DNA of 64,000 bases from an uncultured Actinomycetota bacterium (GCA_963770565.1 CAVYQE010000001.1:192001-256000), one strand, 5' to 3'; shown: positions 2,741 through 59,716, counted from the stretch's first letter. Notes: generated by a model from the letters alone, not told the origin. A program made the numbers and translations.

Positions 2741-2741
2741 C

Positions 2742-3179: not shown

Positions 3180-3219
3180 GCATATCCAACGCCGCCTAAC
3201 TCCGACCACCGGCCCCATC

Positions 3220-6855: not shown

Positions 6856-7071
6856 CCGACTGTAACTGGGTTTTGAGTGGGTGACACGAAAATCCTCGTG
6901 ATTCGCGCATCCCCTCTTGTGGTAAGCATTGCGGTGTTTCGGAGGCGAGGGTTGTTTGTCCACGATTGTCGGCGATTGCGGTCATTGCGCCATCCCCGCC
7001 CAAAACTCCGGGCAGAGAAGAGGAACCCGTGTCCGTGTGGTATGATACGGACCGGAGATCGAGTGATTCTC

Positions 7072-7632: not shown

Positions 7633-7891
7633 GCGCCGCCTGACGAACGCCGCCCGCCCTCCACCCTCGGCTCCCTGCTCCCCGCTCCCTGCTCTCTGCT
7701 CCCTGCTCTCTGCTCCCTGCTCCCCGTTATTTCTCCGATTGGTCTTCTCTCGGGCACACGTTTTTGGTATCTACGCGGCACCGAAGGCCGGTTTGCCCTG
7801 TGACGGGCGGAACCGGCGCATTTCCCTCGCCCGCAATATCGGTCGGGCAATCCAATTCTGGCTTGATTCCTTTTCCGTGGGGACTCTCCCG

Positions 7892-10123
7892 ATGAAACGG
7901 TGGTTGCTGCGCCTCTCCGCGCTTTCCGGGGTCGTTGTTTTGGGTCTGTTCGCTATCGCTCAAGCGCAACGGAGCACGGCGGCGACCGACAATCTGGCGG
8001 TCGATCCTCCGGCCACCGCTCCCCTGACGTTGCCGGCCGAGGGAGCGAGCCCGCGCGCAGCTCGAGACATCGATCCGCCCAACCGCTTCAGCGCGGATTC
8101 GACGGCCCGGATCATCTCGATCGAGGATCAACCCGCGCGGCGGCTCCGCCCGGACGCTCCGGCGCCCCGCGGCGCCGATGGGGTCGCCGACGGCGCCCTC
8201 GCTCCGGGCGATCCCTTCAATTTGCATGATCGGGCGGCGCCGGCCGCCGCCCCGGATCGCTTTCCCGCCGCACAGGTTACCGCCGCCTATCCGGCCGACC
8301 CTGCGCCGGCCGCCGACGGCTCGCGCGGGGCAGCGCCTGAAGGACGCGGCGACGGAAGTTCGATCTATGGCAATGGGGGTCGAGCCCCTCGTTCCGATCG
8401 CAGCGAGGTCCGCCCGGTCGCCGCCACGGCGCCGGCGGCGACCTTCGACGATCGCGACGCGCGGCCGCTCGCCGGCCATCCCGATTTCGAGCCGGCTCGA
8501 ATCCCGCCGGCCGACGGCGCGGCGCCGAGGGCGTTGCCAGCGGCCGAAGGCCGCGACATCGGCGCCGATGAGCGCAGTCCCGCGGCTGGCGGCGGCAGGG
8601 GAAGCCCTTTTGGGTCCGACCGGTCAGCCACCAGTTCGGTCATGAAGGGCGACAGCGACTCGAACCATGCATTGCATTCGACGGCGGACGATTCCGCTTC
8701 GGCGACGCCCGCCGCGGTGGAAGGGACGGGGCGTCCCGGCGTCAAGCAGCTCGAAGGCCCGCAATCGCCCCATCTGACGATCGAAAAAACCGCGCCCGCC
8801 GAGGTGCAAATCGGCAAGCCGGCCAAATTCGAAATCAAAATCCGCAACGACGGCAACGTGGCCGCCGAGGGGATCGAGATTCGCGACGAGGTGCCCAAGG
8901 GAACGCGATTGATCGCGACGACGCCCGCCGCGTCGGTCGGCCCGCGCGGGCAATTGAGTTGGTCGTTCAATACGCTCAACCCCGGCGAGCAGTTGGTCGC
9001 GCAGCTCGAACTCATGCCGATCGCCGAAGGGGAGATCGGCAGCGTGGCCAGCGTCACGTTTCGGGCGGAAGCCTCGGCCCGCGCCCTCGCCACGCGGCCG
9101 CAGCTTGCCCTGCAGGTCACTGCGCCCAAACAAGTGATGATCGGCAGCGATGCCCGGCTCGTGATTCGGCTGAGCAATCCGGGCACCGGCGCCGCCAGCG
9201 GCGTCGTGCTCTCCGAGCGCGTGCCGGCCGGATTGAAACATCCCGCCGGCAGCGAACTCGAATTCGACGTCGGCACGCTCAAGCCGGGCGAATCGCGGCA
9301 AATCGAACTTGCGCTCAATGCCGTTCAAGCCGGCCATGCGACGAACGTGCTCACGGCCCACGGCGATGGAAATCTCAAGGCCCAAGAGCGGGCCGACATC
9401 CAAGTGATTGCTCCGGCCCTGGCCGTGGCGATGACCGGCCCGTCGCGGCGCTATTTGGAGCGGCAAGCGACCTACACCGTGTCGGTCTCGAATCCCGGCA
9501 CGGCCCCGGCCAAAGACGTGCAGCTCGTCACGCAACTGCCCAAGGGGATGAAATTCGTCAAGGCCAACAACTCCGGCCAATTCGATCCCAATACGAACAC
9601 GGTGACCTGGAGCCTCGAGGAACTGCCGGCCACCGAAACGGGGAGCGTCAGCCTGGTGGCCGTTCCCGTCGAGATCGGCGAGCAGCGGTTGACGGTTCAG
9701 GGGAAGGCGCGGCAGGGATTGAGCGCCGAAAAGGAGCAAACCGTGGTCGTCGAAGGGTTGGCGTCGTTGGCGTTCGAGGTGCAGGGCGCCGATGAAGCGA
9801 TCGAAATCGGCGGCGAAACGACCTATCAGATTCACGTCGTCAATCAGGGGTCGAAGGGGGCCAGCAACGTCCGGATCACCGCCATCTTCCCCCCCGAACT
9901 CAAGGCGCTGCGGGCCGAAGGGCCCACCCGCGAGTCGGTCGAGGACCATCGCGTCGGCTTCGAGCCGATCGCCCGGCTGGCGCCCAAGGCGGAAGCCACG
10001 TTCCGGATTCGGGCTCAAGCCTTGAAGGCCGGCGATCTGCGCGTCAAGGTGCAGATCACCAGCGATGACGCCCGGCAGCCGATTCTCAAGGAAGAGAGCA
10101 CGCGGGTCTATACGGACCATTAG
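7892..10123 (+). CDS. Exported DUF11-repeat (OmcB-like) protein
   Basis: Signal-like N-terminus, Pro/Ala linker, repeated Ig-like modules (IRNDGNVAAEGIEIRDEVPKG; SNPGTGAASGVVLSERVPAG; SNPGTAPAKDVQLVTQLPKG). Confidence 0.85.
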   Translation: MKRWLLRLSALSGVVVLGLFAIAQAQRSTAATDNLAVDPPATAPLTLPAEGASPRAARDIDPPNRFSADSTARIISIEDQPARRLRPDAPAPRGADGVADGALAPGDPFNLHDRAAPAAAPDRFPAAQVTAAYPADPAPAADGSRGAAPEGRGDGSSIYGNGGRAPRSDRSEVRPVAATAPAATFDDRDARPLAGHPDFEPARIPPADGAAPRALPAAEGRDIGADERSPAAGGGRGSPFGSDRSATSSVMKGDSDSNHALHSTADDSASATPAAVEGTGRPGVKQLEGPQSPHLTIEKTAPAEVQIGKPAKFEIKIRNDGNVAAEGIEIRDEVPKGTRLIATTPAASVGPRGQLSWSFNTLNPGEQLVAQLELMPIAEGEIGSVASVTFRAEASARALATRPQLALQVTAPKQVMIGSDARLVIRLSNPGTGAASGVVLSERVPAGLKHPAGSELEFDVGTLKPGESRQIELALNAVQAGHATNVLTAHGDGNLKAQERADIQVIAPALAVAMTGPSRRYLERQATYTVSVSNPGTAPAKDVQLVTQLPKGMKFVKANNSGQFDPNTNTVTWSLEELPATETGSVSLVAVPVEIGEQRLTVQGKARQGLSAEKEQTVVVEGLASLAFEVQGADEAIEIGGETTYQIHVVNQGSKGASNVRITAIFPPELKALRAEGPTRESVEDHRVGFEPIARLAPKAEATFRIRAQALKAGDLRVKVQITSDDARQPILKEESTRVYTDH

Positions 10124-10440
10124 TCGCGTCTCTGCGGACCGATGCGGTCCGGCGAACCGTAGCGGCTGGGGCGGACCGTGCGGCTGGAGCGAACCTTGCG
10201 GCTGGGGTCGGCCGTGAAAAATCAGCCGGGCGAGAGTTCGAAAGTTTATCCTCTATTTGTTCCGCTCACACGCGCGGCGTGGTCGAGCGATGCTGTTTCG
10301 ATAGACCGAAAGTTGCCGCCGGCTTTTTCAAGTAGCCGCGGCATTTGCGCCCGCGGACTCGGCAGGGAAAGAACGTCGGCAGCCCGCTCGGGAGCCGGAA
10401 AAGTCGTCGAGTTGGCGGCGTTCGGCTTTTCGATTTGCTT

Positions 10441-10525
10441 ATGCGAAAATCCGCGAAAATCCGCGCAATCCGCGGCAAGAAACAAGCATCTTTTTGCCGC
10501 GGATTTCGCGGATTTTCGCGGATCG
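10441..10525. repeat. Inverted short-period repeat hairpin
   Basis: aatccgcgaaaatccgcgcaatccgcggca ... tgccgcggatttcgcggattttcgcggat. Confidence 0.75.
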
Positions 10526-10575
10526 AGGAAAGCGCGGCAGTCGTCAGCGGGTTTCGCTTCGGCGCTTCAACCCTG

Positions 10576-10855
10576 AGGCCGTTTTGTCGATGGTGGCCGC
10601 GCACCTCTGGTTCGCAAGTGGCTAAAGCCGGCACGAGACGGGTAAGTCCCCTGAAGGGGACTGCAATCGCCGGAGGGAGGACGCAGTCCCAGGCATAAAT
10701 GCCGGGGCTACATATAGGGCGGGGGCCGAGGCGACGCGAGACCGACGGGTCGGCCACGACTCGGGTTGATTCCGAAGCGCACGGCGCGCGGAACAAAAAC
10801 CAACCAAACCACCCCACCCCGGCGCCGCAACAAATCGAGCATTTTTCACAGACTA
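10576..10855. mobile_element. Degenerate copy of the TAGGCTGTG-ended MITE family
   Basis: Ends aatcgagcatttttcacagacta (near reverse complement of the 39966 end); shares cggaacaaaaaccaacc with ~63879; left boundary approximate. Confidence 0.55.
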
Positions 10856-11072
10856 CGGCTGGCGCGAACCGGCGTTGCCCCTGGCAAGGCTGCCCGAACT
10901 CGCTACAATACCAACGGGCGGGGCGGATCCTTGGCATCTTGATTGGCGCGGCAAGCTCGGCGGCGCTGCGCGACCGGCTGGGCCTCGCCAAGCGCGACCG
11001 CCTGCCCGATCGGACCTGCCATTCCCGCTCCGAAATTCCGCTCGGCAATCCTCCGACCCTCGACTTTCCGTC

Positions 11073-41759: not shown

Positions 41760-42094
41760 AGAAATCACGGCCGCCGCGCGGGGCTCCTCGCCGCGAAAGG
41801 GGTCGGGAGTCGATTTCGCCCGCTGAACGATCCATAGTGCGAACCGACATCATGGCGAAATCGACTCCCGATCCCCTTTGGGCAACGCCGCCGGAAGATA
41901 AGCCGGTTCTCGAACAGGCTCTTAGGAGCCTGTCCGAGAACCGGCCAAAATCTCCATACTAGCCCGACGCGCTAGCGAGGGCGTATCGGCGACGACTCCC
42001 TCGCTGGCGCATTGGGCTAGTATGCGCCGAAATCGACTCCCGACCCCCTTTAGGCAACGCCCCCGGAAGATAAGCCGGTTCTCGAACAGGCTCC
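41760..42094. mobile_element. Two tandem AGGAGCCTGTCC-family MITEs
   Basis: Second copy 41923-42094 has TIRs aggagcctgtccgagaaccgg / ccggttctcgaacaggctcct. Confidence 0.75.
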
Positions 42095-42151
42095 TGGGGC
42101 ATCGACAACCGCGGCCCTGCAAGCAATGGCACGAACTGCCGAGACTGCGAT

Positions 42152-43203: not shown

Positions 43204-43264
43204 AACAAGCAATGGCGAGAGGTGAAACGAGCAAACCCAGCCGCTTGAGTCTACCGCGCACCCC

Positions 43265-43570
43265 CCGCCCCCCGCGACGCCCCACCCCGCGCTCCGCTCT
43301 CTGCTCTCCGCTCTTCGCTCTTCGCTCTCGGCCGTGCCGCCCGCCAATGTAGCCGGCACGCTCCGCCGTGCCGCAGCCAATGTAGCAGCCACGCTTCGCC
43401 GTGCGCCCGCTAGCTCAATGTAGCAGCCACGCTCCGCCGTGCCGTAGCCAATGTAGCAGCCACACTCCGCCGTGCCGCCCGCCCCTCTCCGCTCTCCGCT
43501 CTCTGCTCTCCGCTCCTTCCTATCGATCGATCCATGCCGCCAAAGCTTCACACCTTCGCACCTTCGCACC
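43265..43570. repeat. Heptamer repeats flanking four ~33-bp tandem units (aatgtagc..cacgctccgccgtgc)
   Basis: Directly visible between the folK start and the CRISPR trailer. Confidence 0.8.
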
Positions 43571-45998
43571 TCATCCCGCCTCGGCAGGCCGGCGGAATCG
43601 AAGAAAGTCGTGACCGGCGATCCGCTCAAGAATCCCGTTTCAATCCGCCGCCGGTCTTTCGACCGGCGGAATCGGGCGACCATCTGGAACACGTAAACGC
43701 CCAGTTTCAATCCGCCGCCGGTCTTTCGACCGGCGGAATCGTCCGTGTAGAGGATGATGCTCGAGTAGACAAAGTGTTTCAATCCGCCGCCGGTCTTTCG
43801 ACCGGCGGAATCGCCGTAGTCGCGGGCGTCGGCCTCGGCTTGCAAACGGGTTTCAATCCGCCGCCGGTCTTTCGACCGGCGGAATCCACAAACGGCTGTA
43901 TCAATTCTTCGCCGACGGCTGTTTCAATCCGCCGCCGGTCTTTCGACCGGCGGAATCAGCCTTATGCCGTAAGGAGTTACGGAAATGGTTGCAAGTTTCA
44001 ATCCGCCGCCGGTCTTTCGACCGGCGGAATCGGTTCAGTTCCTCGGCGTCAATCGCAAGCCGCAAGGTTTCAATCCGCCGCCGGTCTTGCGACCGGCGGA
44101 ATCCCGGAGGAGGTTGACCGGGCCATGGCGAACGGTCGTTTCAATCCGCCGCCGGTCTTTCGACCGGCGGAATCCGTGCGTTGCAGAGTGTGACCGCCGG
44201 GCTTGCGTGTTTCAATCCGCCGCCGGTCTTTCGACCGGCGGAATCTATGCTCTACATCCTCGCCAATCGATCAAACTTTCGTTTCAATCCGCCGCCGGTC
44301 TTTCGACCGGCGGAATCGATAAATCCGACGCTGCCCGGCTCGAGAACGCCAGTTTCAATCCGCCGCCGGTCTTGCGACCGGCGGAATCCGTCACGCTGCG
44401 CATGGCTAGCGGCACGATCGACGTTTCAATCCGCCGCCGGTCACGCGACCGGCGGAATCCGTGGAACGGACGCAGCCGCGTCTCGCTTCACTTGTTTCAA
44501 TCCGCCGCCGGTCACGCGACCGGCGGAATCGCCTACGCCCCTTAACTCTCTGAGGTGATTTATGTTTCAATCCGCCGCCGGTCATTCGACCGGCGGAATC
44601 GTCGCGCCGATCAGTGCACCAATCACGGGCCGAATACACGTTTCAATCCGCCGCCGGTCATGCGACCGGCGGAATCGATGTTCGTTGGCAACGTCGCCGC
44701 GCGGCGGCCAAGCTGGTTTCAATCCGCCGCCGGTCACGCGACCGGCGGAATCGGACGGATAACACGTCGAGCATCTCGCAAGCGGTTTCAATCCGCCGCC
44801 GGTCACGCGACCGGCGGAATCTGACCGCTGAGGCTTTATGATCCTCAGCTCAAGATGTTTCAATCCGCCGCCGGTCTTTGACCGGCGGAATCAGTAGCAG
44901 CGATTTGGGCCGACGGGTGGCAGGGGGTTTCAATCCGCCGCCGGTCACGCGACCGGCGGAATCCTACTATATATAGTGACTAACCGATAAGGCTTGTGTG
45001 TTTCAATCCGCCGCCGGTCACGCGACCGGCGGAATCGCGGGCTGCGAATCGGCCTGCTCGACGATCTATGGTTTCTCCGCCGCCGTCGTCGACGCATCGC
45101 ATCACCCGCTGCATGCACTGGATAATGTGTTTCAATCCGCCGCCGGTCTTTCGACCGGCGGAATCGCCGCCGTTGTCCTGCTGCCGCGTGGTCGATACGA
45201 GCGTTTCAATCCGCCGCCGGTCATGCGACCGGCGGAATCGCGGCTGACGGCATGCGACTGTCAAAGAGCAAATCCTGTTTCAATCCGCCGCCGGTCACGC
45301 GACCGGCGGAATCTCAGCTACCAAACGGCCGCACTCTACCCGTTGGCGTTTCAATCCGCCGCCGGTCACTCGACCGGCGGAATCGATCGCAGTGCTGAGT
45401 CACAGCCGTTGATCCATCGGGTTTCAATCCGCCGCCGGTCTCTCGACCGGCGGAATCTCGTCGGGTCGCATACGGCTAGACGATCAGTGATCAGCGTTTC
45501 AATCCGCCGCCGGTCATGCGACCGGCGGAATCGCTGGCTGATTAGACGCCGCCCATAACGGACCGTCCATGTTTCAATCCGCCGCCGGTCTTTCGACCGG
45601 CGGAATCTTGCCACGAACTGAGGACCGTTGAACACGGATTGTTTCAATCCGCCGCCGGTCTTTCGACCGGCGGAATGAGTGCGAACTGATCGAGGACGAG
45701 TGCAATGATGGGTTTCAATCCGCCGCCGGTCTTTCGACCGGCGGAATCGCGAGCGTTTACGGTGGACGCGTCAATTCTCCGGTTTCAATCCGCCGCCGGT
45801 CTTTCGACCGGCGGAATCGGCCCGAGGCCGGTTAGACCGCCGCCTCCTGACCCGGCGAATGGCCTATGGACCGGCTGCATACTCGGGATTTGCTGATTTG
45901 TCCGGTGCAACATCTGGACGCCTGTTCGGCTTGCGGACGCGAAGGAAGCGTGGCAAGCTAGGAGTAGGTGATTTGTGTCCCCTCAACGGAGAATCGCT

Positions 45999-46214
45999 AT
46001 GCGACCACCCCAAAGCAACGTCGAGCAATTGGCAGGCATGTTGGTGAGTATGATCGTCGGAGCGTTCTGCATCGTCTTCATTTCCCCATTTCTTCTGGCT
46101 GTCGCCTTCACCTGGCCTAGAGTCTTTTTGATCGGCTTGGCGGCGCTGCTCTGCACGCTCGCCGGGATTGGGTTCCATCGCCTTTTCCGCCGACTATTCG
46201 TTCGGCGGAATTAG
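45999..46214 (+). CDS. 71-aa predicted membrane protein encoded inside the giant CRISPR spacer
   Basis: GGAGA RBS-like motif, ATG, two hydrophobic helices, basic C-terminus (HRLFRRLFVRRN). Confidence 0.6.
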   Translation: MRPPQSNVEQLAGMLVSMIVGAFCIVFISPFLLAVAFTWPRVFLIGLAALLCTLAGIGFHRLFRRLFVRRN

Positions 46215-46529
46215 ACCGTTGATCCACTCTTCGAAGCTACTCTTAAAAAGCGGCGGATTGCCACCGTTATTGTACTGGATTGGCAGCCAGCTTCCGTCGC
46301 CAGAAATTGCGGTATTCCACGGATTTTCGCGGTAGTTGAAGAATAAATGCACGTCGTAGATATTGTTGCCCTGCCAATCTCCATAAGGGGCAATCACGAC
46401 GGAATCGAACAGCAATGTCAGCGCATCGGCACCAAAAATTGGATTTGCGTTGATCGTACCGCAGTATTTCTGCACTGAGCAGATTGCCGCGTTCGTCAAC
46501 ACCGTGGCCGTGGACGCGTCAATTCTCCG
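46194..46529 (-). pseudogene. 5'-truncated 3' part of a foreign (possibly phage) gene inside the giant spacer
   Basis: Frame open from the repeat boundary: RRIDASTATVLTNAAICSVQKYCGTINANPIFGADALTLLF...YRENPWN...PPNE*; AT-richer than the host genes. Confidence 0.5.
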
Positions 46530-49500
46530 GTTTCAATCCGCCGCCGGTCTTTCGACCGGCGGAATCTTCGGCGGGGCCAGTCATTCGCCGGCCCGTGACG
46601 TTTCAATCCGCCGCCGGTCTTTCGACCGGCGGAATCCGACAGTCGCGGTCGTCTTATTGCAGCAGGCATGGTTTCAATCCGCCGCCGGTCTTTTGACCGG
46701 CGGAATCGCACAGGGCCGGAACATCCGCCAGGGCGGCACGGTTTCAATCCGCCGCCGGTCTTTCGACCGGCGGAATCTCGCCGATCGGACGTCAGCGACT
46801 CGGAACGAAGCGTTTCAATCCGCCGCCGGTCTTTCGACCGGCGGAATCGGAAGTGCCGTCGATGCACGTCAGCCCGCTGTGTTTCAATCCGCCGCCGGTC
46901 TTTCGACCGGCGGAATCGCGGCGACCGATTCTATCGCCGCGAGCATCGTGGTTTCAATCCGCCGCCGGTCTTTTGACCGGCGGAATCCGGCTCCGCGTGA
47001 CTTTAGCCATTCAGCGGGTCATGTTTCAATCCGCCGCCGGTCTTTTGACCGGCGGAATCGCCGAACGAAATGCCCTGCCGGATCAACAGCAGTTTCAATC
47101 CGCCGCCGGTCTTTCGACCGGCGGAATCATCTGTGAGCCGCGTGATCCATTCCAGTCGATGTTTCAATCCGCCGCCGGTCTTTCGACCGGCGGAATCGCC
47201 GAACGCACACGGTGTCGCGAGGAGCCGCTCGTTTCAATCCGCCGCCGGTCTTTCGACCGGCGGAATCGGTGCATGATCTGCACTGCCAGGCCTTGCGGAT
47301 GGTTTCAATCCGCCGCCGGTCTTTCGACCGGCGGAATCGCTCGTCAACTCGTCGCGGCAATGCGAACGGCAATCGTTTCAATCCGCCGCCGGTCTTTTGA
47401 CCGGCGGAATCTCTCTTGCGGCGGGATGCACGGCATCGTGATCGGGTTTCAATCCGCCGCCGGTCTTTCGACCGGCGGAATCGGGGCCCGCGTCGAACGC
47501 TCCGCTCGCTCCAAATGTTTCAATCCGCCGCCGGTCTTTCGACCGGCGGAATCGCCGACTTCGTCGAGCGGGCGATGGTCGTGGATTGTTTCAATCCGCC
47601 GCCGGTCTTTTGACCGGCGGAATCCGAGGATGCGGCTATGCAGCTGCGACGAATCGAGACGTTTCAATCCGCCGCCGGTCTTTCGACCGGCGGAATCGCA
47701 TAGCCGCCAAGGGGACCGACGCGGGCTGTCGGTTTCAATCCGCCGCCGGTCTTTCGACCGGCGGAATCCGACACGTTAGCATCGTGCCGATGACGCCTCC
47801 GAGTTTCAATCCGCCGCCGGTCTTTCGACCGGCGGAATCCATCCGTCCGCCAAGGGGTGAACTGATCAGTAGTTTCAATCCGCCGCCGGTCTTCGACCGG
47901 CGGAATCCGGCCATAATCCCGCACGAAAGTTAAGGCCGTTAGTTTCAATCCGCCGCCGGTCTTTCGACCGGCGGAATCGGCTTCATATCCGAATGTCTCG
48001 AATTGGAAAAGTTTCAATCCGCCGCCGGTCTTTCGACCGGCGGAATCCGATGCTCGGCTGAGTTGTAGAGGATTCCGGTTTCAATCCGCCGCCGGTCTTT
48101 CGACCGGCGGAATCGGTGCGTCGAACGCGGGATCGCTGACGTCACGGTTTCAATCCGCCGCCGGTCTTTCGACCGGCGGAATCTGCTGGCGTTCGATCGG
48201 CACTTCGCCGCGCAGTAGGGTTTCAATCCGCCGCCGGTCTTGCGACCGGCGGAATCAAGGTGATACGCACGTGGAAGGACTGATTGCGGTTTCAATCCGC
48301 CGCCGGTCTTTCGACCGGCGGAATCGCTGAATCTAAACGCAGATAATCTGACCGGCGGTCGTTTCAATCCGCCGCCGGTCTTTCGACCGGCGGAATCTTG
48401 ACTCTCGACCGCGATGCAAGCGGAGCTATCAGTTTCAATCCGCCGCCGGTCATTCGACCGGCGGAATCGGAGACCCTTGACGCCGCCGCGCCGAGAAGTT
48501 TCAATCCGCCGCCGGTCTTTCGACCGGCGGAATCGAATGGTGTTCATCGCCGATAACATGCCACTCGATGTTTCAATCCGCCGCCGGTCTTTCGACCGGC
48601 GGAATCGGCGAGACGAACAGCGAAGACTTCAACCGACAGTTTCAATCCGCCGCCGGTCTTTCGACCGGCGGAATCCGCCGGTCATGTCGGCGATCCGGCG
48701 GAATCCCGGTCGAATTCGGCAATGTTTCAATCCGCCGCCGGTCTTTCGACCGGCGGAATCCGGCATCCGTAAGCAATTGCCTCGCCGGTTCATGTTTCAA
48801 TCCGCCGCCGGTCTTTTGACCGGCGGAATCCAAATTGCCACTCGCATGGTGAGTAGGTGTTTCAATCCGCCGCCGGTCTTTCGACCGGCGGAATCAACTG
48901 CGTGCCCGGAGACGATACGAAGTTTCAATCCGCCGCCGGTCTTTCGACCGGCGGAATCGGCAGCACCGTCGATCACCGCTCAAACAGGTTTCAATCCGCC
49001 GCCGGTCTTTCGACCGGCGGAATCGATGGCGGTTTACTTCGCCGTCCCGAGCGCCACGGTTTCAATCCGCCGCCGGTCTTTCGACCGGCGGAATCGGGTT
49101 GTCACCATCGCGAAACCTGGAAATCAATGTTTCAATCCGCCGCCGGTCTTTCGACCGGCGGAATCGAGTGCTGCGCAGTTCTCACGGGTAGACGCAGGTT
49201 GTTTCAATCCGCCGCCGGTCTTTCGACCGGCGGAATCGCGATCGGACTCACTCTGCCGTATAGAATCCGGCGTGTTTCAATCCGCCGCCGGTCTTTCGAC
49301 CGGCGGAATCAGTGCAGATCGCAGATCATCGTCGCAACGTCAGCGATGGTTTCAATCCGCCGCCGGTCTTTCGACCGGCGGAATCGCGACGCCACTCCGA
49401 GCTACGATTTGCACGATGTTTCAATCCGCCGCCGGTCTTTCGACCGGCGGAATCCGAGCTCGAATCACGGCGAAATTGCTCGATGGATGTTTCAATCCGC

Positions 49501-51083
49501 CGCCGGTCTTTCGACCGGCGGAATCAGCATTCGAGCACATCAAACGTCCTAGGCGTATCTGTTTCAATCCGCCGCCGGTCTTTCGACCGGCGGAATCGTG
49601 ACGTGCATGTGTCTTCCCGATTTCCGCAGCTGTTTCAATCCGCCGCCGGTCTTTCGACCGGCGGAATCTCGACCGCTCCGTGACTTTGCACAGCACTGAA
49701 CGTTTCAATCCGCCGCCGGTCTTTCGACCGGCGGAATCGCGTGCGCGGTTCGCAGTGGCAAGATAGTTTCTGTTTCAATCCGCCGCCGGTCTTTCGACCG
49801 GCGGAATCGTCTCCGCAACGGTCGTCATGCCGACGTCGATGTTTCAATCCGCCGCCGGTCTTTCGACCGGCGGAATCTCTGTCTCGCGGTCAGCCACGCC
49901 GATTTGTAAGTTTCAATCCGCCGCCGGTCTTTCGACCGGCGGAATCGCTCTGTGTTGGAATGCGCTGACAGATGATCCGTTTCAATCCGCCGCCGGTCTT
50001 TCGACCGGCGGAATCGTCGGCACCGATCTTTCGATGCATCATGTTCTTATGTTTCAATCCGCCGCCGGTCTTTCGACCGGCGGAATCGCGGCGTGGAGTT
50101 ATCAGGCCGACGTCGAGCTTGTTTCAATCCGCCGCCGGTCTTTCGACCGGCGGAATCCGGCGACTGTGCACGCCATGCCGACATGGCAACGAGGTTTCAA
50201 TCCGCCGCCGGTCTTTCGACCGGCGGAATCGGCCGGACAGATATCTGTTACGACTGTCGATCGAACTGTTTCAATCCGCCGCCGGTCTTTCGACCGGCGG
50301 AATCGGCGGCATTGAACGCCGAAGCCGTTGACTGCTGCTGTTTCAATCCGCCGCCGGTCTTTCGACCGGCGGAATCGGTCGCAGTCGCGGCATGAATCGC
50401 ACATCAGACGAAGTTTCAATCCGCCGCCGGTCTTTCGACCGGCGGAATGCGACACCGGAACGCGATCTGCGCGCGATGTAGATGTTTCAATCCGCCGCCG
50501 GTCTTTCGACCGGCGGAATCGGCGGCAAGTCGGGCAGACACGTCGGAGATACAGTTTCAATCCGCCGCCGGTCTTTCGACCGGCGGAATCATAGCTGACC
50601 GCAGCATCGACCGCAAGCGCCGTAGCATCGTTTCAATCCGCCGCCGGTCTTTCGACCGGCGGAATCGAGCTCGAGCGTCGAACATGTCGAGCTGTACACA
50701 TGTTTCAATCCGCCGCCGGTCTTTCGACCGGCGGAATCGCCGGTGCACTGCTGATCGGACGCCGTGTCAGATGTTTCAATCCGCCGCCGGTCTTTCGACC
50801 GGCGGAATCGCTGATTCGTCCACTGGCGGACGATCCACTACATTGTTTCAATCCGCCGCCGGTCTTTCGACCGGCGGAATCGCGTCGCTGCTCATTCTGC
50901 CGGCAGTTCTGCATGTTTCAATCCGCCGCCGGTCTTTCGACCGGCGGAATCGTCGTGCCATCGCGTGAACCATGTCGAAATGTTTCAATCCGCCGCCGGT
51001 CTTTCGACCGGCGGAATCTGAAGGTGATTCGGCTCGGCGGCACTTCGTTTCAATCCGCCGCCGGTCTTTCGACCGGCGGAATC

Positions 51084-51293
51084 CGCTGGCTTCCCAAGTC
51101 GAAGGCTGGCAATCGGTTGCGCTGGTCAATCGCGGACCTCCAGCAGCGCGGGGCAATCGCCGTTTTGTCGCAGCCATGTCGTCGCCCTAACTCGAGAAGA
51201 ATGCCCGACTTGCAGCTTCCGCGAACTCCCCGGCAAAATCGCCGGCGCTTGGGGTCCGCGAACGGCCGATCGGCCGGGCCAGCAGTGCCGCCA
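51084..51293 (-). promoter_or_regulatory. CRISPR leader
   Basis: Non-coding segment between the cas2 stop and the first repeat; imperfect inverted motif GCGGACCCC...GGGAGTTCGC on the - strand. Confidence 0.75.
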
Positions 51294-51575
51294 TCATATC
51301 ACGAGCGGGCCGTCCATGTCGGTCGGCTCGTGCGCCATGATGTTCGACACGCGTATCGCCGTCGAGGAAGTAGAAGCGGAGCGAGTCCTCGCGCGCCTCG
51401 ATCAATCCCACCAGCCGGGGCGCAATCGCACCCACTCCGTCGTCCCGACAAGGCACTCGAAAACCGACTTCTGTACTCGCTGCCCAAAGTCCTCGCAACA
51501 TTGGGCCACCTGCCGCAGCCGCTTGCAGCCCGCGGGAGTCGCCGTCGCCACGTCGTAAACGATGAGAACTTTCAT
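51294..51575 (-). CDS. cas2: CRISPR-associated endonuclease Cas2, frameshifted
   Basis: MKVLIVYDVAT...KRLRQVAQCCEDFGQRVQKSVFEC...EDSLRFYFL. Confidence 0.95.
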
Positions 51576-51681
51576 GGTTCGCCGTAGACCATCGCCGCCA
51601 TGAGGCAATACTTATGCGCCGCGTCGCAAACGATGGGGACGTTCATGGTTCGCCGGCCTCCGCGGCCCCCAGCCTTGCCGC

Positions 51682-52716
51682 TCAGTTCTTGGGGACGAAC
51701 GGAACGTAATCGGCCAAATCGCCGCGGATGTGCCGCGCCAGAATGCGGGCTTGCAAAAAGGGCATGCGGCCGAACGTCGTCTTCTGCGCGAGCAGCGGAT
51801 GCATCAACTCCTCGCGCTTTCGCCGGTGATACTCCGCGAGCACGATGCGCCGCGTCGCGTCGTTCATCTCGACGCTGCCGCCGTCGCGCGTCGTGAATCC
51901 CTCGGCCTTGACCTGCTGCCGATTGACCAGGGCCAGCGCCAGCCGATCGGCCGCCAGCGCGCGGAACTCCTCCATGAGATCGAGCGCCAAGCCGGGCCGG
52001 CCGGGTCGATCGACGTGCAGGAACCCGACATTTGGATCGAGTCCCGCCGCCGCCGCCGCCGACACGCAATCGTTCAACAACATGCCGTACAGAAACGACA
52101 ACAGCGCGTTCATCGGATCGAGCGGGGGTCGGCGCGACCGCCCCTTGGGCGCGAACGTCGCACGCTCGTTGCGGACGAGGGCGGGAAACGCGGCAAAATA
52201 GTTTCGGGCGGCATCCCCTTCATACCCGCGAACCGAATCGACGGACTCCGCGACCGGCAACCGGGGAATGGCGTCGGCCAGCCGCGCGGCGGCTTGTTGC
52301 AGGGCTTGCCGATCGCCCGCGTCGTCGGTCTCGCGGGCGCCGCGGAGGATCAGATTGCGGCAGTTGTGAATTTTGCCGGCCACGACCTGGGCCGTGATTT
52401 GCCGGATGCGATCCGGCAGGCTGGCCAAGCGAAATTGCTCGCGGCGGAGCAGAACGTTCCCCGAGCCGGGGGCGTCGACGCGGGCCCGCAGCCGGCCCGA
52501 CTCGGTGAGGAAATTGACGGCCACTCCGTTATCCGCGCAGAGGCCCATCGCGCCGGGCGTGACATGCACGCCGCCGAACGCAGCCACCGATTCCAATTGA
52601 TGCACGGGGACCGCGAGCTTCACCTTGCGCTCGACGACGACTTGCAGGGTGAGATGGTCGCGGCGGATCGACGATCCGCGCGTCACGACATAGAGCGTGT
52701 TGAGTTGGATTTCCAT
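51682..52716 (-). CDS. cas1: Type I-C Cas1
   Basis: LNTLYV, GNVLLRREQF, RGYEGDAARNYF, RSRRPPLDPMNALLSFLY, GFLHVDRPGRPGLALDLMEEFR. Confidence 0.98.
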   Translation of the reverse strand: MEIQLNTLYVVTRGSSIRRDHLTLQVVVERKVKLAVPVHQLESVAAFGGVHVTPGAMGLCADNGVAVNFLTESGRLRARVDAPGSGNVLLRREQFRLASLPDRIRQITAQVVAGKIHNCRNLILRGARETDDAGDRQALQQAAARLADAIPRLPVAESVDSVRGYEGDAARNYFAAFPALVRNERATFAPKGRSRRPPLDPMNALLSFLYGMLLNDCVSAAAAAGLDPNVGFLHVDRPGRPGLALDLMEEFRALAADRLALALVNRQQVKAEGFTTRDGGSVEMNDATRRIVLAEYHRRKREELMHPLLAQKTTFGRMPFLQARILARHIRGDLADYVPFVPKN

Positions 52717-52722
52717 GGCGGA

Positions 52723-53602
52723 TCACTTCGATGGGAGAACCTCGCCGGCCGCGTCGCCGACGGTGAACAATTCGGCTGCCGCTCGGCGATAGGCCGCCGG
52801 GGCGGAGACCAATTCCGGCAAGCAAAGTGCATACAGCGAGCATTGCCGGCATTTCGGGTGCAGGATCGGCGGGGGCGTGACGCCGCAGGCGAGCAGCTCA
52901 TGCAAGCGGGCGGCGGCGTCGCTCGTTTTGCGGCGCAGCGATGCATCGAAGGCGACGTCGCGCCGCCGCCGAGATTTGACGTGGAAAATCGCCCCCCGCG
53001 GCACGAACACGCCCAGCATTTCCTCGAGGCAGATCGCCTGGGCACAGAGCTGCACGTCGTCGTTGTCCCACTTCCGCCTCTTCCCGCGCTTGTACTCGAT
53101 GGGAAACGGCGTCTCGGCGGCGTCCTGGGGAAACAGCGGCGGCGGCGGGCCATGGAGCGGGGTTCGCCAAGATTCCAAGCCGGAGTCGCGCGGCTTGTTG
53201 CGCGGCGGGACAACTCCCTCACCCCCGTTCGACAAGCTCGCGGCAGGCAGGCCCTCTGTCGTCAAGGGAGAGGGAGCGGACAAGGGGGAACTCGAAATAT
53301 TCCCGGCCGGACCTTCGTTTGGCGGCGGATGAAACTCGACCAGATCGGCCACGCCGACCAGCCGCAGCCGATGACTCACCAGCCGCAGCCCGCGCCGTTC
53401 GAAACGGCACCTCCTCGGCATCCCGCGGCTCATGCGCCCGCCGATGATCGAGTGTCCCCGCCTGGGTGTGCATATTCTCGACCCAAATCCCCTCCAGCCG
53501 ATGCAGCGCGCACCGCCGCGGGCAGAACAACAGATCGTTCAACGCCGAAAGCGGCGGATAGTCGTCGGAAACGGCATTGGTCGTGGCGGGATCGCTCGAC
53601 AT
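52723..53602 (-). CDS. cas4: Cas4 with ~70-aa Pro-rich insertion, frameshifted
   Basis: LSALNDLLFCPRRCAL, GVADLVEFH, PIEYKRG, VQLCAQAICLEEM, KCRQCSLYALC. Confidence 0.95.
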
Positions 53603-53651
53603 GGTCTCGCATCTCCACGGGGCTGAAACCGGTTTTGCACCGCCGCAACCT

Positions 53652-54586
53652 TCAGCCAACCATCCTGTGCAACCTAACGCCAGCGGGCAAGTCTTTCTCG
53701 TCGATTGCGATTTGCGGCCGATAATCGTCAAAGCCGCGAGGGGCCTTATCGGGGCCGAGAGCGGGGGTTCGGATACGGGCGAACAAGTCTGCGCCGGCGC
53801 GGCGCCGAGAGGCGAATCGTGCTCGAAGACATACAGCCCGCGAGTACACATCAAGCCGCGGCTGGCCGAACGATCGATTTCCCACATCACTCCTTTGAGC
53901 GCCGACCAAAGCAATTCCAGATCGGCGTCGGAGAAGCCGGTATCGCGAGCCAAATACGGGCTGACGAAGCCGTGGCAGCGATAGAGCGCGTAAGGGATCG
54001 TATTCTTGCGGCCCATGGTTCCCGTAATGCTGCCGTCCTTTTCGGATTGTTTTTTGGCCTCATCTTCGGTCGTAACGGACTTTCTTGTAATCGAAAACTC
54101 CAGCGGAACGATCACGTCGAGGGAGCGCGCGAATGTGATCTGGACGGGGCCGCGAACTTGGCCGCAGTTCACCCCGGTTGTCATCACAGCACCGAAAGCG
54201 CGGATGTCGTAGAAGTTCTCGCACATCCAATGGCGAGCCTTGCCGGTGTTTTCGGCTTTCTTTCTGGCGTCCTTTTCATCGGCGGCGCCGACGGCGGCAT
54301 GGGCTCGCTGGTGCTGGAGATTAAGAACCCGTTTCTCGTAGACCGCATCCTGCGTCTGAAAGTAGAGTTCGCAACCCGGGCGATTCTCGGCCAATACCGA
54401 GATGGCGTTGCGAATCTTCCGCTTCAAGCAACCATCCGTGACCAGACCTTGGAGCGATTGCGGATCGATGCGCGGCATGTTGCCGGAATCCGGATCGCCA
54501 TTGGGATTGCCGTCCAAAACGTCGAAAAGAAACGCGAAATCGTATCGCCGTGAAACGGGAAGGGCCGAAGTTGCTACTGTCGCCAT
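53652..54586 (-). CDS. cas7: Type I-C Cas7 (Csd2), frameshift near 3' end
   Basis: RRYDFAFLFDVLDGNPNGDPDSGNMPRIDP, DGCLKRKIRN, FYDIRAFGAVM, GQVRGPVQ, TMGRKNTIPYALY. Confidence 0.97.
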
Positions 54587-54626
54587 AATGGAATTCTCCA
54601 AATGAGGATGGTCCGTGGTTGTTTAC

Positions 54627-55034
54627 TCACGCCGAAGCCGATTCGAGCGATTTCGCCTTCCGCTCGGCGATTTGCTCGAATTGTTCAGCGCGTTGGTGAT
54701 AGTATCCCAACGCAAAACGCCCTTGATCTTGCAACGAGAGTTGGCCTTTCGGGCCCGATGGCGGCAACAGCCTGGAGACCTCGGTCAAGAGCTTGTCGAG
54801 AGCCACAAAGGAGCCCGGCTTCTCCCCGCGCAGCTTTCGCAGATGATTCTCCGCATCGGCGTAGAGCCGAGAGAAAACGAGCGACGGCGCGGAGCTGAAC
54901 GTGCCGTAGAACTTGTCCACGACGTTCGCGTTGACATCGCCGAGCGCCGCGTACTGAATCTGCTCGAACACCGCCAACAGTCGGCCGTAAAGATACGCCG
55001 GCTGGCGCTCATCGGAATCCAATGTGTCAGTCAC
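54627..55034 (-). CDS. cas11: Putative internally translated Cas11 small subunit within cas8c
   Basis: AAGGGA SD-like motif upstream of in-frame GTG at 55034 (VTDTLDSDERQPAYLYGRLLAVFEQIQ...QGRFALGYYHQR); internal Cas11 starts are known for type I-C. Confidence 0.7.
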   Translation of the reverse strand: MTDTLDSDERQPAYLYGRLLAVFEQIQYAALGDVNANVVDKFYGTFSSAPSLVFSRLYADAENHLRKLRGEKPGSFVALDKLLTEVSRLLPPSGPKGQLSLQDQGRFALGYYHQRAEQFEQIAERKAKSLESASA

Positions 55035-56410
55035 GGGAATGTCCCTTCGTAAAAGAATGAGCTTGATCAGAGCCATCCGGACCGCCCGGAAGCCAGAGCG
55101 GCCTTCGCGCGCAATCGCCGGAGGCATGCGACAAGCAACGATTCGCAAAGCGGAGTGCCGGCGATCGCGGATTCGAGCAACCGTGCCGGCGTGTCGGGGG
55201 CCACCTGATCGGAGTCGAAGGCGGTCGCGGCGGCAAGTTGCCAGAGCGGAAATGCGCGTGGTGGGCTTTCCGCCGCCGTGCTTGGAGACGTCGGCAATCC
55301 GCAATTGCCTGAACCAGCGGACGAGGTTTTCCATCGGCGCGGCATCGGCAGTTCGAGATAGTCGCGAACGACTGCCCGAGCGGCGTTTCCGCTCAGGACG
55401 AGCACATAGAATGCATTGACGTCGTCAACGGCATGGGACTCGACGCCCTTGAAGATCGATTCCAGCAGATGCTCGAATTGTTCCGCGGACGCTTCGAAGA
55501 TTCCCATGAACGAGGTGTCGGTCGGCTCGCGCGTCCAGAACAGAACGATGACGTCGCCCAATCGGATGCTGGTCCGCGGATTCCCGGGAACCTTATTTCG
55601 AATCAAGGCGTTCAGAGCGCGGCAATAACCGTCGACGGCGGCATATCCGAGACCGGCGTTCGCGGTCCCATCGAGGCCGTAGCTCTCGAATGCCGCCTTG
55701 TCATAGGAGACGATGCTCACTCCAGTCGAAAGACCTCCGGGAATTCCGCTCAACTTGATCGGATGCGTCGTCGGGATCGGGCCGAATTCGCGGGTCACCT
55801 GACATAGCCCGTGCGGGCCGCCCTGCTGTTTCGCAAGGCTCACTCGGGCAAACAATTCGGTGTACCACGCGCGGACTTTCGGTCGCTCGACGATCGTTTT
55901 TCCGTTGTCGGGATTCCAGGCAAAAGTGCAGCGGTCGCCGGCGCCGGGCTTGAGTTCGGCAAACTCCGCCCCGACTTTCGCGGCCAGCGATGCGTCGGCC
56001 TGAAGGGCATGCCCGAACTTCGCGACGGCGAGCAGCGCGGGATCGTCGGTCGCGGCGGCGGCTTCGTCGATTTGCCGCCAGAAGGTCGCTCGGCTCCGCT
56101 CGGCCTTTTCGCGGCTCTCGTCGTCGATGGCGACGGGCAACACGCGCGGGAGCGTGTCGGCAAAGTATTTGGCAAAGCCTTGATTGGCCGCGTTGCCGTG
56201 CGCCATCGGCACCGACAATGGATTTCCGCGATCGGGCTTCGGCTTTGCCGTTTTGCCTTTCGCCGGCAAAAACCCGCGCCGCTCGACGATGCCAAGATAG
56301 TTGCCGTCATCGCCGATCTGAATGATCCAGGGGACCGGCAATGTCTCGAAAGCCAAATCGTCGGTCAGGCCATCTCTTTTCGCCAATTCGTAAAGCCGAT
56401 TGAGGATCAT
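54627..56410 (-). CDS. cas8c: Type I-C Cas8c (Csd1), frameshifted
   Basis: [63 protein letters not shown]. Confidence 0.95.
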
Positions 56411-57224
56411 GCCGCGGTCTCCTCTTTTTCCCAGCCGAGAATTTTGACGGGAGGCTCGCCGTTTGGTCCCGCGGCCTCGCGATCGCAATGCAACACGCCG
56501 CGAACGACATTGGCGTCGAAGTATCCCGGCTGATTCTTGCCGTTTTGGCCGTACTGAAGGTCATAGAGCATCAGGCCGAGGGATTGATTCCAGTCGGTCA
56601 ACGGCGCTTCCAATCCGTTGAACGGGAGCGAATTGGCAAGCAAACTCGCGGCAGCCCAAGTACGGCCGATGAAAGCACTGGCCCTTGGCCACGCGGCGGT
56701 TGAACATCGCGACATACTTGGCGACGTTGTCCGGCCCGCCGTCTTCATCGACATCGGGCGGTTTCATTCGCGGGCGATTGGCCTTGTCGGTCAGGAAGAT
56801 CGACGCATCGATGCGATAAGCGACGTGTTGCAAGCAAAGCGAATTCCGCTGCGTGCGATTCTGACCTTGCGCACTTTCGCGGCCCGCCGAATCGACGAGA
56901 TACGGCTGGAACGTCGAGGGATTCTTGATCCAACCTTCGACGGTCCGGGGAGCGATTTTCCCTTGAATCTCATTCCGGCGAATGCCGATCAGGCGATACG
57001 GCATCTCCGCCGCCGCGGGCGGGAAATCCGGTGGAAATGCCGGCCTGAGCGCCGTGATGCGGCGAACGTGCCATCGCATCTGCGGCTTGAAGAGAACCGC
57101 CTCCAGCGCCCCGCGCCGCGGAGGGGGTCATGAGCGGATAAGAAAGCCGCTCGACCTTCAACTCGGGGCGAGTAAACATCGCGAATTCGCCCCAGACCTT
57201 AATTGAGGCAACCGGCGTGGACAT
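56407..57224 (-). CDS. cas5: Type I-C Cas5 (Cas5c/Cas5d), frameshifted
   Basis: [59 protein letters not shown]. Confidence 0.96.
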
Positions 57225-57242
57225 AACGCTCTCCTTTGCTCG

Positions 57243-59499
57243 CTAGACTACAAGCGCGGTTTCGGCGGCCTCGCCGCTCACGCCAAGATACGCATCATAC
57301 GCTCCGTAATAGACGAGCAAACCCAGATTCTCGGTAAGCTGGGCAACCAAGCCGGTCATTTTCGCGATTTCGTGTCGCCGCAAGTTCACCTGAAACGGGA
57401 CCAACGCCCGGAAATTGGCGCGGGATTTGTCGGCGCGAAGATTGTCGAGCAAGATCTCTATCTCCGCTGTGCGCTCGCGCCACGTTGCCACGACAACCGG
57501 CACACTGTCGTCGTCGATGAGCGAGTAGAGCTTGGCCACTTCAGCGAAGTTGCCGGTCTTGCGATGGCCTTCGATGTTGTGGGCGTCGAGGTCTCCGGAA
57601 TGAAACAGCCTCGTGAAATAGGCGAGGATATCGGCTGGTTCGTCGATTCGCGGAGGATTGCCCGCGGCGAGAAAGTTCGCTTCAAGAATCTGGCGGCCGG
57701 CCTTGTACCATGGATCGCGCGGCATCGAATCCTCGGCCGCGCGGAACACCACGACTTCGCCGCCCGGTCAACCGTCGGGGCCGTTGAGCAGCCCTTCGCG
57801 ATTGCACCGACCCGCGGCTTGAATCACCGATTCGAGCGGCCCGATTTCGCGCATAACGAGCGGAAAATCCACATCGACGCCGGCCTCGATCAACTGCGTC
57901 GAGGCCAAGTGGCAGGGTTCGCCGCGCCGGAGCCGCTCGCGCACCGCGTCAAGGACGGCGAGGCGATGGGCCGGACACATCGCCGTCGAGAGATGAAACG
58001 CCGCATCGCCGACGCGCTGTTGAAGCTCCAAGAAGACGTTTCGGGCAGCGGCCCGCGTGTTGACGACGCACAGCGCAGCCCGACCGCCGCCGATAGCCCG
58101 GCCGTCGGTCATCCGCTCGGCAACCTGCGCCCAGGTGAGCGGCTCGTCGCCGCGCAGTGGCCAAACCACTTCGACTCGCTTCAGCCGACGGAACAGCTCC
58201 AGCCCGTCGGGGATGATTTCTGCGGCCCGGAGCCTTTCGTCCTCCGCAAGCTGCTCGTGGTCGAAAGCCGGTTGAGTCGCGGTGCAAAGAATAATCGACG
58301 CGCCGAGCGAATCGGCGACTTGCCGCAGCATGGCGCATGTCGGAGCAGCCAAACCCGGCGGCACGGATTGACATTCATCGAGGATGATGACGCTACGGGC
58401 GATGTTGTGCAGCTTTCGGCATCGCGACGGCCGATTGGAAAACAGGCTCTCGAAGAACTGCACGTTGGTCGTGACGATCAGCGGCGCGTCCCAATTCTCG
58501 GCGCGGCGAACGGCGTGCTGCGCGCCGTCTCGTCGCCATCGTCGCCGCCATAGGGCTCGGCCAAGCTGTGATGCTCGAAGAGATCGAGATCGGAACGGCC
58601 GATCCCGAGCCCTCGCGAATGACGGCGGCGTTTTGCTCCAGGATGGTCAAATACGGAGCGACATAGATTATTCGCCGCAGGCCGTTGAGCGCGGCATGCC
58701 GCAGTGCGAAGGCGAGGCCCGAGAGTGTTTTTCCGCCGCCGGTTGGAACCGTCAGCGAGAACAGGCCGGTTGCTTTTTCTGCGGCACTGAGGCAAGCCTG
58801 TAAGACTTCATCGCGGATTGTCGCGATCGCTCGCTGACACGACTTCGCGCGAATTTGGATGTGCTGAAGCAAGACCGCGAGCCGATCGGCCGGATTCAAT
58901 CGAGGCGGCGCGGGTTCGAGCGGCAACATGTTGACCGACCGCTCGTGAATCGAGCTATCGGTCCAATCGGCGTCGATCAAGCAACTGAAGATGATGCGCG
59001 TGAGGAACTCGGCTCCCAATGCGTCAACCGACCCGGCGAGACCCAAAGAAAGCGCGGCGATAGGCGGGCAGTCGGAGGCGACTGCCGCCGAGATCGCCGC
59101 CGCGTCGGAGGTCGCGAGCGGTGATTTGATCAGGCTGGCCAATGCGGCGCGGTCGGGGATCCCGCCGTGATGCCCGGCGATGGCGAAGGCAACGGGAACA
59201 TTTCCAGCCCGCGCCGTTCGCGCGGCGCCGGCCTGCTTGTGAAACGTCTGCTCGCGCGGAACGGTAAGCGGCCGCCTGTCGAATCGGCAGTCGAGCAGCG
59301 TTTGAAATCCCGTCCGGTACTTTCCCAGGTCGTGCAGCCAACCGGCAATCTTGGCGGTGGAAATAAAGGCGTCGTCGGCCGGGCATGCCGCGCGGGCGAA
59401 ATCCTCCGCAAGCCGGGCGACGTTGGCCAAGTGCTCGCGGAGCAACTGCCAATCGGCGCGATCGGCGCGGTGGCCGGAATGGGCGTAGTAAATGGACAT
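57243..59499 (-). CDS. cas3: Cas3 HD nuclease-helicase, frameshifted
   Basis: YAHS, EHL, LHDLGK, IAGHHGG, LIDAD, VPTGGGKT, ILDECQ, STQLIEAGVDVDF, QAAGRCNREG. Confidence 0.97.
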
Positions 59500-59716
59500 G
59501 CGTGCGCAACCCTCGGGAGGGTAGCATAAGCCGCTGCGGGGTGCGCGCACAAGCAGTTTTGCCGTCGCGAGGGAAGAAAAAGCGAAGCGGCGGGCGGCAC
59601 GCGCGGGGCGCGCGGCTACGGTTGCGCGGCTGTCGAGACGCCGGCGTGCTGGTCGCGGAGCCTCATCGAGAATTCGGACGCGCCAAGCTGGATTGGGGCG
59701 ATGATGATTGCACAAA

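Follow-up and report, generated by a model that had tools for sequence, protein, structure and literature searches.

The Cas1-Cas2 integrase of CRISPR systems makes its first attack at a repeat's leader-side edge, and off-target (neo-CRISPR) integration by this enzyme is known. The casposase is a homologue of Cas1, and casposon duplications are ~14-15 bp long. For type I-C systems, spacers of 33-37 nt have been reported in Legionella, with a comparatively loose spacer-length ruler (PMC5602111). Duplications of 29-33 bp were obtained in the type I-B system of Haloarcula (PMC4872114), and in Escherichia coli type I-E two rulers for duplication length have been described (PMC5039180). Spacers of 100 nt or more in arrays of E. 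coli, Pseudomonas aeruginosa and Streptococcus thermophilus were mostly transposon-like (PMC4524480). In the present study, we analyzed 64,000 nucleotides of DNA from an uncultured Actinomycetota bacterium (GCA_963770565.1, CAVYQE010000001.1:192001-256000; this whole stretch is called the window, and positions are counted from its first letter). It contains a type I-C CRISPR array in which one unit holds 711 bp between its repeats. This unit contains 691 bp of phage DNA bracketed by a 57-bp duplication, and it may be the product of an aberrant acquisition by Cas4-Cas1-Cas2.

The oversize unit is enclosed by repeats R29 (45782-45818) and R30 (46530-46566), both identical to the 37-nt consensus, while the normal spacers of the array are 26-39 nt long. 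The segment 46510-46529 is identical to 45762-45781, the 20 nt at the high-coordinate end of the neighbouring 33-nt spacer, which we call X. Two perfect 57-bp direct copies, confirmed by BLAST, thereby surround the 691-bp insert (Table 1), and in CRISPR RNA (crRNA) orientation the order is R30, X1-20, 691 nt, R29, X1-33, R28. The duplicated 57 bp are thus a repeat plus 20 nt of an older spacer, not a repeat alone; one edge of the duplication coincides to the base with the leader-side repeat edge and the other falls 20 bp inside X. The 20-nt identity is not due to chance, because the longest stretch common to any pair of the 91 normal spacers is 11 nt. No microhomology was consumed at either junction (CCAC/GGCCAC, both copies kept). 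At 54.8% GC, the insert lies below the spacers, which average 59.2%, and below the contigs of the genome (67-70%). An earlier reading of this DNA, made by a model from the sequence alone (the sequence-only reading), had given the repeats, the 711-bp spacing, the 20-bp identity and the 57-bp duplication correctly to the base. Its order of repeat, X1-20, 691 nt, repeat and full X in crRNA orientation agrees with the four lines of polarity evidence given next. The "65 or so" repeats that it had counted on the leader side of R30 proved to comprise 63 repeats with up to 3 substitutions, a single repeat that lacks 1 nt and a single truncated remnant.

A script run over the 64-kb window found 93 copies of the 37-nt repeat with at most 3 substitutions; two further repeats carry a 1-nt deletion in the T-run of the loop (44857-44892 and 47872-47907), which brings the total to 95. 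In its minus-strand form, the repeat makes a 9-bp stem topped by a GAAA loop (-20 kcal/mol, z -4.4) and ends in a ...ATTGAAAC 3' tail; such a tail is linked with type I-C. In the Rfam scan, CRISPR-DR9 matched the repeats on the minus strand, below the gathering score; CRISPR-DR matches on the repeats were the only ones, and no family was matched inside the insert. The type I-C genes cas3, cas5d, cas8c, cas7, cas4, cas1 and cas2 stand in one operon beside the array. Among these, cas1, cas4 and cas7 look whole, and cas2, cas3, cas5d and cas8c are interrupted by frameshifts in the assembly. Because of the side and strand of the cas operon, the degenerate repeat at the left end, the strand of the CRISPR-DR9 matches and the stem-loop with its ATTGAAAC tail, we conclude that crRNAs are made from the minus strand and that the leader is on the right. 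The leader begins at 51084, and the units age toward lower coordinates. The genome, a metagenome-assembled genome (MAG), comprises 11 contigs that total 4.43 Mb; its completeness is 94.9% and its contamination 3.97%. We found no second array with this repeat in the 4.43 Mb, and neither the repeat nor the array, nor a pre-insertion allele, in 40 relatives.

Other irregularities were observed in the same array. Repeats R12-R25 (44423-45532) carry the loop variants ACG, ATG, ATT, ACT or CTC in place of TTT, with the stem kept, and this block is bordered by consensus repeats on both sides, which suggests a mosaic array or a past recombination. At 48676-48723, an apparent 48-nt spacer consists of an 18-nt spacer remnant and a 30-nt truncated repeat with an altered loop; the truncated repeat (48676-48705) abuts the next full repeat with no spacer in between.

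We next consider the content of the insert. The minus-strand frame 46197-46532 is open, including through the 20-mer, as the sequence-only reading had noted, although the part encoded by the 20-mer is not family-like (see below). In a phmmer/HMMER scan of 1.84 billion representative proteins (E<=0.001), the encoded fragment of a gene here named F matched 17 proteins, the fragment from the window itself included. Most of the relatives have a length of ~270-330 amino acids (aa), and the matches cover only their C-terminal ~100 residues. The best full-length relative, P0004, was matched at 6.1e-28, with 56% identity over residues 229-331 of 332. Judged from these alignments, the insert carries only the last third of the ~330-aa gene F. 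F matched no Pfam or PHROG family. An alignment of 15 sequences was used to build an AlphaFold (AF2) model of P0004 (pLDDT 74.7, pTM 0.73), which had no fold match in PDB at E<=0.001. In BFVD, it matched 11 uncharacterised proteins of uncultured Caudovirales at this threshold (best match 1e-11, TM 0.56, full length). The nearest ESM Atlas clusters (scores 0.95, 0.94 and 0.94) are 74-95% viral. In addition, a distant F-like open reading frame (ORF) is present in the bacterium's own genome (C1:341511-342428; 16 bits), and the motif G-x-V-N-S...G...LLF is common to both. This ORF (10066-10932 of the C1:331500-351400 region) ends a prophage-like row (274-10932 of that region, 61.8% GC) that starts with a lambda-type portal (PHROG 1.7e-35), followed by head-closure-like and major-tail-like ORFs. 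None of the array's spacers matched the prophage-like row. We therefore describe F as a protein of tailed phages; a place in the tail module is probable, but we treat it as a lead and not as a result.

The remainder of the insert includes a 71-aa hydrophobic ORF, P0002, convergent with the F fragment, and a stable hairpin between the two (Table 1). No relatives of P0002 were found, and its Pfam and PHROG matches were all at E>0.05. The hairpin was considered as a repeat-like element (an RNA anti-CRISPR or solitary repeat) and rejected, because the alignment score of 28 that it gives was also attained in 33 of 1000 dinucleotide shuffles and in 80 of 1000 host windows. A scan for promoters and terminators gave no promoter-like site and 2 terminator-like sites, versus 1.6 expected, and we do not claim a polar effect. 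None of the three ORFs tested had a Pfam match at E<0.06, and hence no transposase was detected; neither were terminal inverted repeats (best local score 5). A BLAST search of the insert against its own genome returned the self match and chance matches of up to 35 nt, showing that the insert is single-copy and unlike the leader or host DNA. It had no blastn match in phages or plasmids and no DNA match in the 40 relatives. Relatives of F were also sought in other ways: protein-pattern scans based on two alignments found none in viral, genome or metagenome contigs, tblastn of P0004 found none in phage records, and the F profile, run over 400 genomes of the phylum, gave the self match and one weak match, in the own genome. 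The other spacers of the array had no match beyond chance in the insert or the host.

Because F is truncated at profile position 209 of 315, the 71-aa ORF is an orphan and marks of a mobile element are absent, we conclude that the insert is an arbitrary 691-bp piece of a phage genome, and neither a mobile element nor a captured intact gene. The sequence-only reading had described AT-richer DNA with no transposase and no terminal inverted repeats, which our results bear out. Its further possibility, an insertion sequence (IS), a miniature inverted-repeat transposable element (MITE) or host DNA separating two arrays, was tested and finds no support in a single-copy insert with no host or leader match. 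It went too far in calling the unit "gene-carrying" and the array a "gene-capture site": what is present is the 3' third of one gene and an ORF with no detectable relatives. Searches of the kind that it had proposed, by blastn for the insert in phages and plasmids and for the exact sequence of X in viral and metagenome contigs, found a source for neither.

Whether the 20-mer next to the insert belongs to the captured DNA bears directly on how the unit arose. We scored it with an F profile made from 14 homologues, the window's sequence being left out. The alignment of this profile to the fragment begins at residue 9, the first whole codon past the 20-mer. The score was 136.5 bits with the real 20-mer and 135.3 bits without it, a gain of 1.2 bits. 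An equal or higher score was obtained with 35 of 68 stop-free heads of other spacers and with 858 of 2000 random 20-mers (mean 136.5 bits). In a control for power, consisting of 14 leave-one-out trials, the gain from the native seven residues ranged from -0.2 to 11.4 bits, and for the six closest relatives it was 6.2-11.4 bits. The 20-mer had been a candidate for part of the captured gene, as its residues RRIDAS resemble the family's HR[LIVM]PAS by eye, and this candidate failed the profile-scoring control. Since the residues of the 20-mer score like random ones, the 57 bp are best read as a target-site duplication. According to the profile, homology to the family goes no further than the edge of the 20-mer, which looks like a copy of X rather than a part of the phage. 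Two routes to the unit had been offered by the sequence-only reading. The first, a correct join at the repeat edge together with a join ~20 bp into X, is favoured by the start of homology after the 20-mer and by the random-like score of the 20-mer itself. The second, recombination with or capture from an invader related to X's target, fares less evenly: a 20-mer contiguous with the insert in its source is not supported by the profile scoring, and a relationship between the invader and X's target is upheld as a distant one, at the level of the protein family, by the analysis of X that follows.

The F profile was also applied to all 402 peptides that the 91 spacers encode in stop-free frames. 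The best of the 402 was ASVYGGRVNSP, read from X on the plus strand, which aligned with profile positions 225-232. It fits the motif Y-x-G-x-V-N-S, including the two invariant residues G and N, and shares 6 of the 7 residues of YCGRVNS in P0005. Its score was reached, in any frame, by 17 of 6000 shuffled spacers and by none of the 90 other real spacers. To judge from this peptide, spacer X probably came from a distant homologue of F. At the nucleotide level, X and the counterpart of its source site in the insert are identical at ~15 of 33 nt (manual codon-by-codon count), and the best ungapped match of X anywhere in the insert is 17/33, which is chance level (null mean 52%). The exact 33-mer of X had no match in viral, metagenome or genome contigs. 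By these comparisons, X and the insert represent different, distantly related alleles of one phage gene, a kinship that fits successive acquisitions from one phage lineage, perhaps at an acquisition hot spot. The second-ranked of the 402 peptides came from the spacer at 45240-45276, seven units older than X, in which the crRNA-sense DLLFDS resembles the F motif LLFDS; its score of -1.2 bits was not significant (0.85 expected among 91).

The unit resembles a canonical type I-C acquisition in that phage DNA is joined at the leader-side repeat edge, the repeat is duplicated, a type I-C operon, leader and polarity are in place, and the neighbouring spacer is probably from the same phage gene family. 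It differs in that the insert is 691 bp long instead of ~33-37 nt, the duplication is 57 bp instead of 37 bp, and the second cut lies 20 bp inside the neighbour spacer. Ruler-shift integration, as in Haloarcula type I-B (PMC4872114) and E. coli type I-E (PMC5039180), is similar in having a fixed leader-side site and a distal site whose position is given by distance and depends little on sequence. However, those shifts were of 1-3 bp, in engineered repeat mutants and with spacers of normal size, whereas here the shift is +20 bp, the repeats are wild type and the insert is oversize. Casposon integration is similar in that an enzyme of the Cas1 family inserts long duplex DNA and staggered attacks leave a target-site duplication. 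In contrast, the 691 bp hold only the truncated F and the 71-aa ORF, with no casposase gene, polymerase gene, terminal inverted repeats or self-mobility. The IS and transposon insertions reported in other arrays (PMC4524480) likewise place hundreds of bp of non-repeat DNA between two repeats. They are unlike the present unit, which has no transposase and no inverted ends, is single copy, contains a truncated phage gene and is anchored at a repeat edge by its 57-bp duplication.

We propose that the unit arose through aberrant acquisition by the type I-C Cas4-Cas1-Cas2 proteins, with an untrimmed phage fragment, a precise attack at the leader site and a misplaced attack at the spacer site, an account to which we assign an even chance. 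We favour it because the perfect 57-bp duplication, the signature of a staggered cut, has one edge exactly on the leader-side repeat edge, and because the precise and the imprecise junction fall on the predicted sides. Further reasons are that the locus has intact cas1 and cas4 genes, the remnant of a cas2 gene and a leader adjoining the array; that the insert is a random piece of phage DNA and the 20-mer no part of the captured gene; that X probably derives from a homologue of F, as successive acquisitions from one lineage would give; and that duplication-length rulers can be shifted and the length ruler of type I-C is loose. The prespacer would have been a long untrimmed fragment of a tailed phage, comprising the last third of F, the hairpin, the small convergent ORF and ~180 bp more. 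One 3' end would have attacked the repeat then lying ahead of X, exactly at its leader-side edge, giving the clean insert/R29 junction. The other end would have attacked the opposite strand 20 bp (~two helical turns) inside X, and not at the repeat-spacer junction, giving the X1-20/insert junction. Gap filling would then have duplicated the 57 bp between the nicks (repeat and X1-20) instead of the 37-bp repeat. We infer that a long prespacer may be unable to span both active sites of one Cas1-Cas2 complex, so that the distance constraint on the second attack would be lost. The event most likely took place when X was the newest spacer, and the polarity of the array suggests that the unit was retained during the later addition of ~64 normal units. 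As it stands, the unit is probably inert, a scar that might at most give a ~750-nt unprocessable transcript segment with the first 20 nt of X and weaken transcription into the 29 older units.

If generalized, this proposal would mean that a standard type I-C Cas4-Cas1-Cas2 can insert unprocessed ~0.7-kb DNA in nature, in the manner of a casposon and with a staggered cut equal to a repeat plus two helical turns, that the product can persist while the array grows, and that arrays serve as occasional kilobase-scale capture sites. We advance this broader claim tentatively, with somewhat less than even confidence.

Several points weigh against an origin by Cas1-Cas2. The evidence consists of a single locus in a single MAG, known from the assembly alone and with no pre-insertion allele, and the frameshifts in four cas genes reflect either consensus indel errors or a decaying system. 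The published ruler shifts were of 1-3 bp and in mutated repeats, and the repeats here are wild type. In a literature search, we found no case in which Cas1-Cas2 inserted hundreds of bp with a +20-bp duplication, nor any naturally occurring oversize spacer of phage origin flanked by a duplicated repeat and part of a spacer. Comparable cases may be contained in supplementary table S4 of PMC4524480. The proposal does not account in detail for the link of X to F, or for the origin of X and the insert in one ~100-bp stretch of the gene. X is not a plausible primer for this allele, because the two are identical at only ~15 of 33 nt and have opposite orientations. Finally, the sequence of the source phage was not found in phage, plasmid, viral, genome or metagenome collections; a TTC protospacer adjacent motif (PAM) at the X-side end, and a source that lacks the 20-mer, are predictions of the proposal. 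With TTC ahead of the first base of the insert, the frame would read T TCG GCC (Ser-Ala-Thr-Val-Leu), which is no more than compatible with the family consensus P-A-S-A-V-L.

The alternative that survives best is an illegitimate insertion independent of Cas proteins, in which end joining or template switching at a break or a stalled fork copied in a stray phage fragment, and the 57-bp duplication came from staggered breaks or fill-in, with an end at the repeat edge only by accident. Rearrangements do occur in this array, as the other irregular units (48676-48723, near 45070 and R12-R25) indicate, and no PAM or other Cas-specific mark was verified at the insert. Yet by our own estimate, which assumes a random break in a unit of ~71 bp, an exact hit on a repeat edge would occur by chance about 1 time in 35 per end. 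Moreover, neither junction consumed microhomology, and a 57-nt stagger is unusual for repair. We consider this explanation unlikely.

An assembly artefact or chimera, in which the insert is not in the array of any real cell, is quite improbable. The sequence comes from a MAG with the completeness and contamination given above, and the cas frameshifts and the two repeats with T-run deletions make an imperfect consensus possible. However, any assembly path would require reads that join phage DNA to X1-20 plus repeat, and repeat to phage DNA, and relocating the insert would leave the oddity. In addition, the contig has a length of 1.6 Mb, the insert was found once, and there is no mismatch between the two 57-bp copies.

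Recombination between phages and arrays through spacers was reportedly described by Varble et al. in 2019. Applied to this locus, it would mean that a phage with an X-like target integrated at X by homologous recombination and that a later deletion left 691 bp. Phage DNA is indeed joined to the array beside a phage-related spacer, X and the insert fragment appear to come from the same protein family, and the shared 20-mer can be read as a crossover tract. Nevertheless, orientation and the break in homology do not suit a crossover within X: X reads like F on the plus strand, but the F fragment of the insert is on the minus strand, the DNA beside the 20-mer is not what adjoins the protospacer in the family gene, and the family homology stops at the 20-mer boundary. 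Nor does X match the insert in nucleotides beyond the chance level given above. Furthermore, a single crossover would duplicate X-derived sequence and not a repeat plus 20 nt, so that the repeat inside the duplication is a misfit as well. We judge this route to be very unlikely.

Hardly credible, finally, is a non-autonomous IS, MITE or casposon-like mobile element, or a pair of arrays split by leader or host DNA: long spacers in other arrays are mostly transposon-like (PMC4524480), but this insert has no transposase, casposase or terminal inverted repeats, is single copy in the genome and absent from 40 relatives, contains a truncated gene of a phage structural module, is unlike the true leader (BLAST self match only) and lower in GC than the host, and lies between identical repeats with a partial spacer duplicated.

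If Cas1-Cas2 made the insertion, the unit would be a natural record of prespacer trimming and the repeat-length ruler failing together, which would suggest that the distal cut depends on a geometry imposed by the short prespacer. The CRISPR integrase would then keep the long-DNA insertion behaviour of its casposase ancestor, a point that bears on the evolution of CRISPR integrases from casposases and on the use of integrases for writing long DNA. The locus would also provide a substrate design for in vitro tests, i.e., long duplex DNA and a leader-repeat-spacer target. The signature to search for in other genomes would be a long unit flanked by a repeat and a partial copy of the older spacer. 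If Cas1-Cas2 was not responsible, the unit is merely an unusual scar in an old array.

Table 1. Positions of the oversize unit, its contents, the surrounding array and the cas operon in the window.
Feature	Coordinates	Strand	Basis or remark
Spacer X, 33 nt	45749..45781	minus	
57-bp copy 1 (20 nt of X + R29)	45762..45818		
Foreign insert, 691 bp	45819..46509		
57-bp copy 2 (20-nt copy of X head + R30)	46510..46566		
5'-truncated F gene fragment	46197..46509	minus	profile positions 209-315 of 315; stop codon 46194-46196
Counterpart (VQKYCGTINANP) in the insert of the probable X-source site	46440..46475	minus	34 nt inside junction; opposite orientation to X
71-aa hydrophobic ORF P0002	45999..46214	plus	GGAG 8 nt upstream of ATG; convergent with F fragment
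Stable hairpin between the convergent ORFs	46186..46211		-15.8 kcal/mol, z -2.8
Type I-C CRISPR array	43563..51083	minus (transcription)	repeat script, Rfam and folding
Degenerate terminal repeat at left end of array	~43563-43599		
Degenerate repeat	near 45070		
Truncated repeat	48676-48705		
Leader region	51084..51290 (approximate limits)	minus	between newest repeat R93 (51047-51083) and cas2 3' end; read from sequence
cas2	~51290-51572	minus	apparently frameshifted, frame change near 51430; read from sequence
Type I-C cas operon	51682..59715	minus	right of array; Pfam
cas1	51682-52716	minus	Pfam Cas1 1.6e-93
cas4	52723-53433	minus	Pfam Cas4 1.7e-14
cas7	within 53219-54601	minus	Pfam Cas7 2.5e-81
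cas8c/Csd1, two pieces	54627-55334 + 55067-56488	minus	Pfam Csd1 8.4e-41 and 2.2e-53
cas5d, two pieces	56561-57079 + 56970-57224	minus	Pfam Cas5d
cas3, at least two pieces	57768-58463 + 58393-59715	minus	Pfam Cas3 HD and Cas3 C-terminal domains

Short duplications were also observed around the array. A 39-nt stretch over the cas2 start (51546-51584) has a copy 71 nt upstream, between cas1 and cas2 (51617-51655), and the two are 87% identical. Just past the trailer end of the array, at 43251-43525, a ~33-38-nt unit (CAATGTAGC...CGCCGTGC) occurs four times, and its copies are flanked by runs of a GCTCTC-like hexamer. Farther to the left of the array, two 71-nt direct copies, at 41856-41926 and 42028-42098, are 93% identical and lie 172 nt apart.

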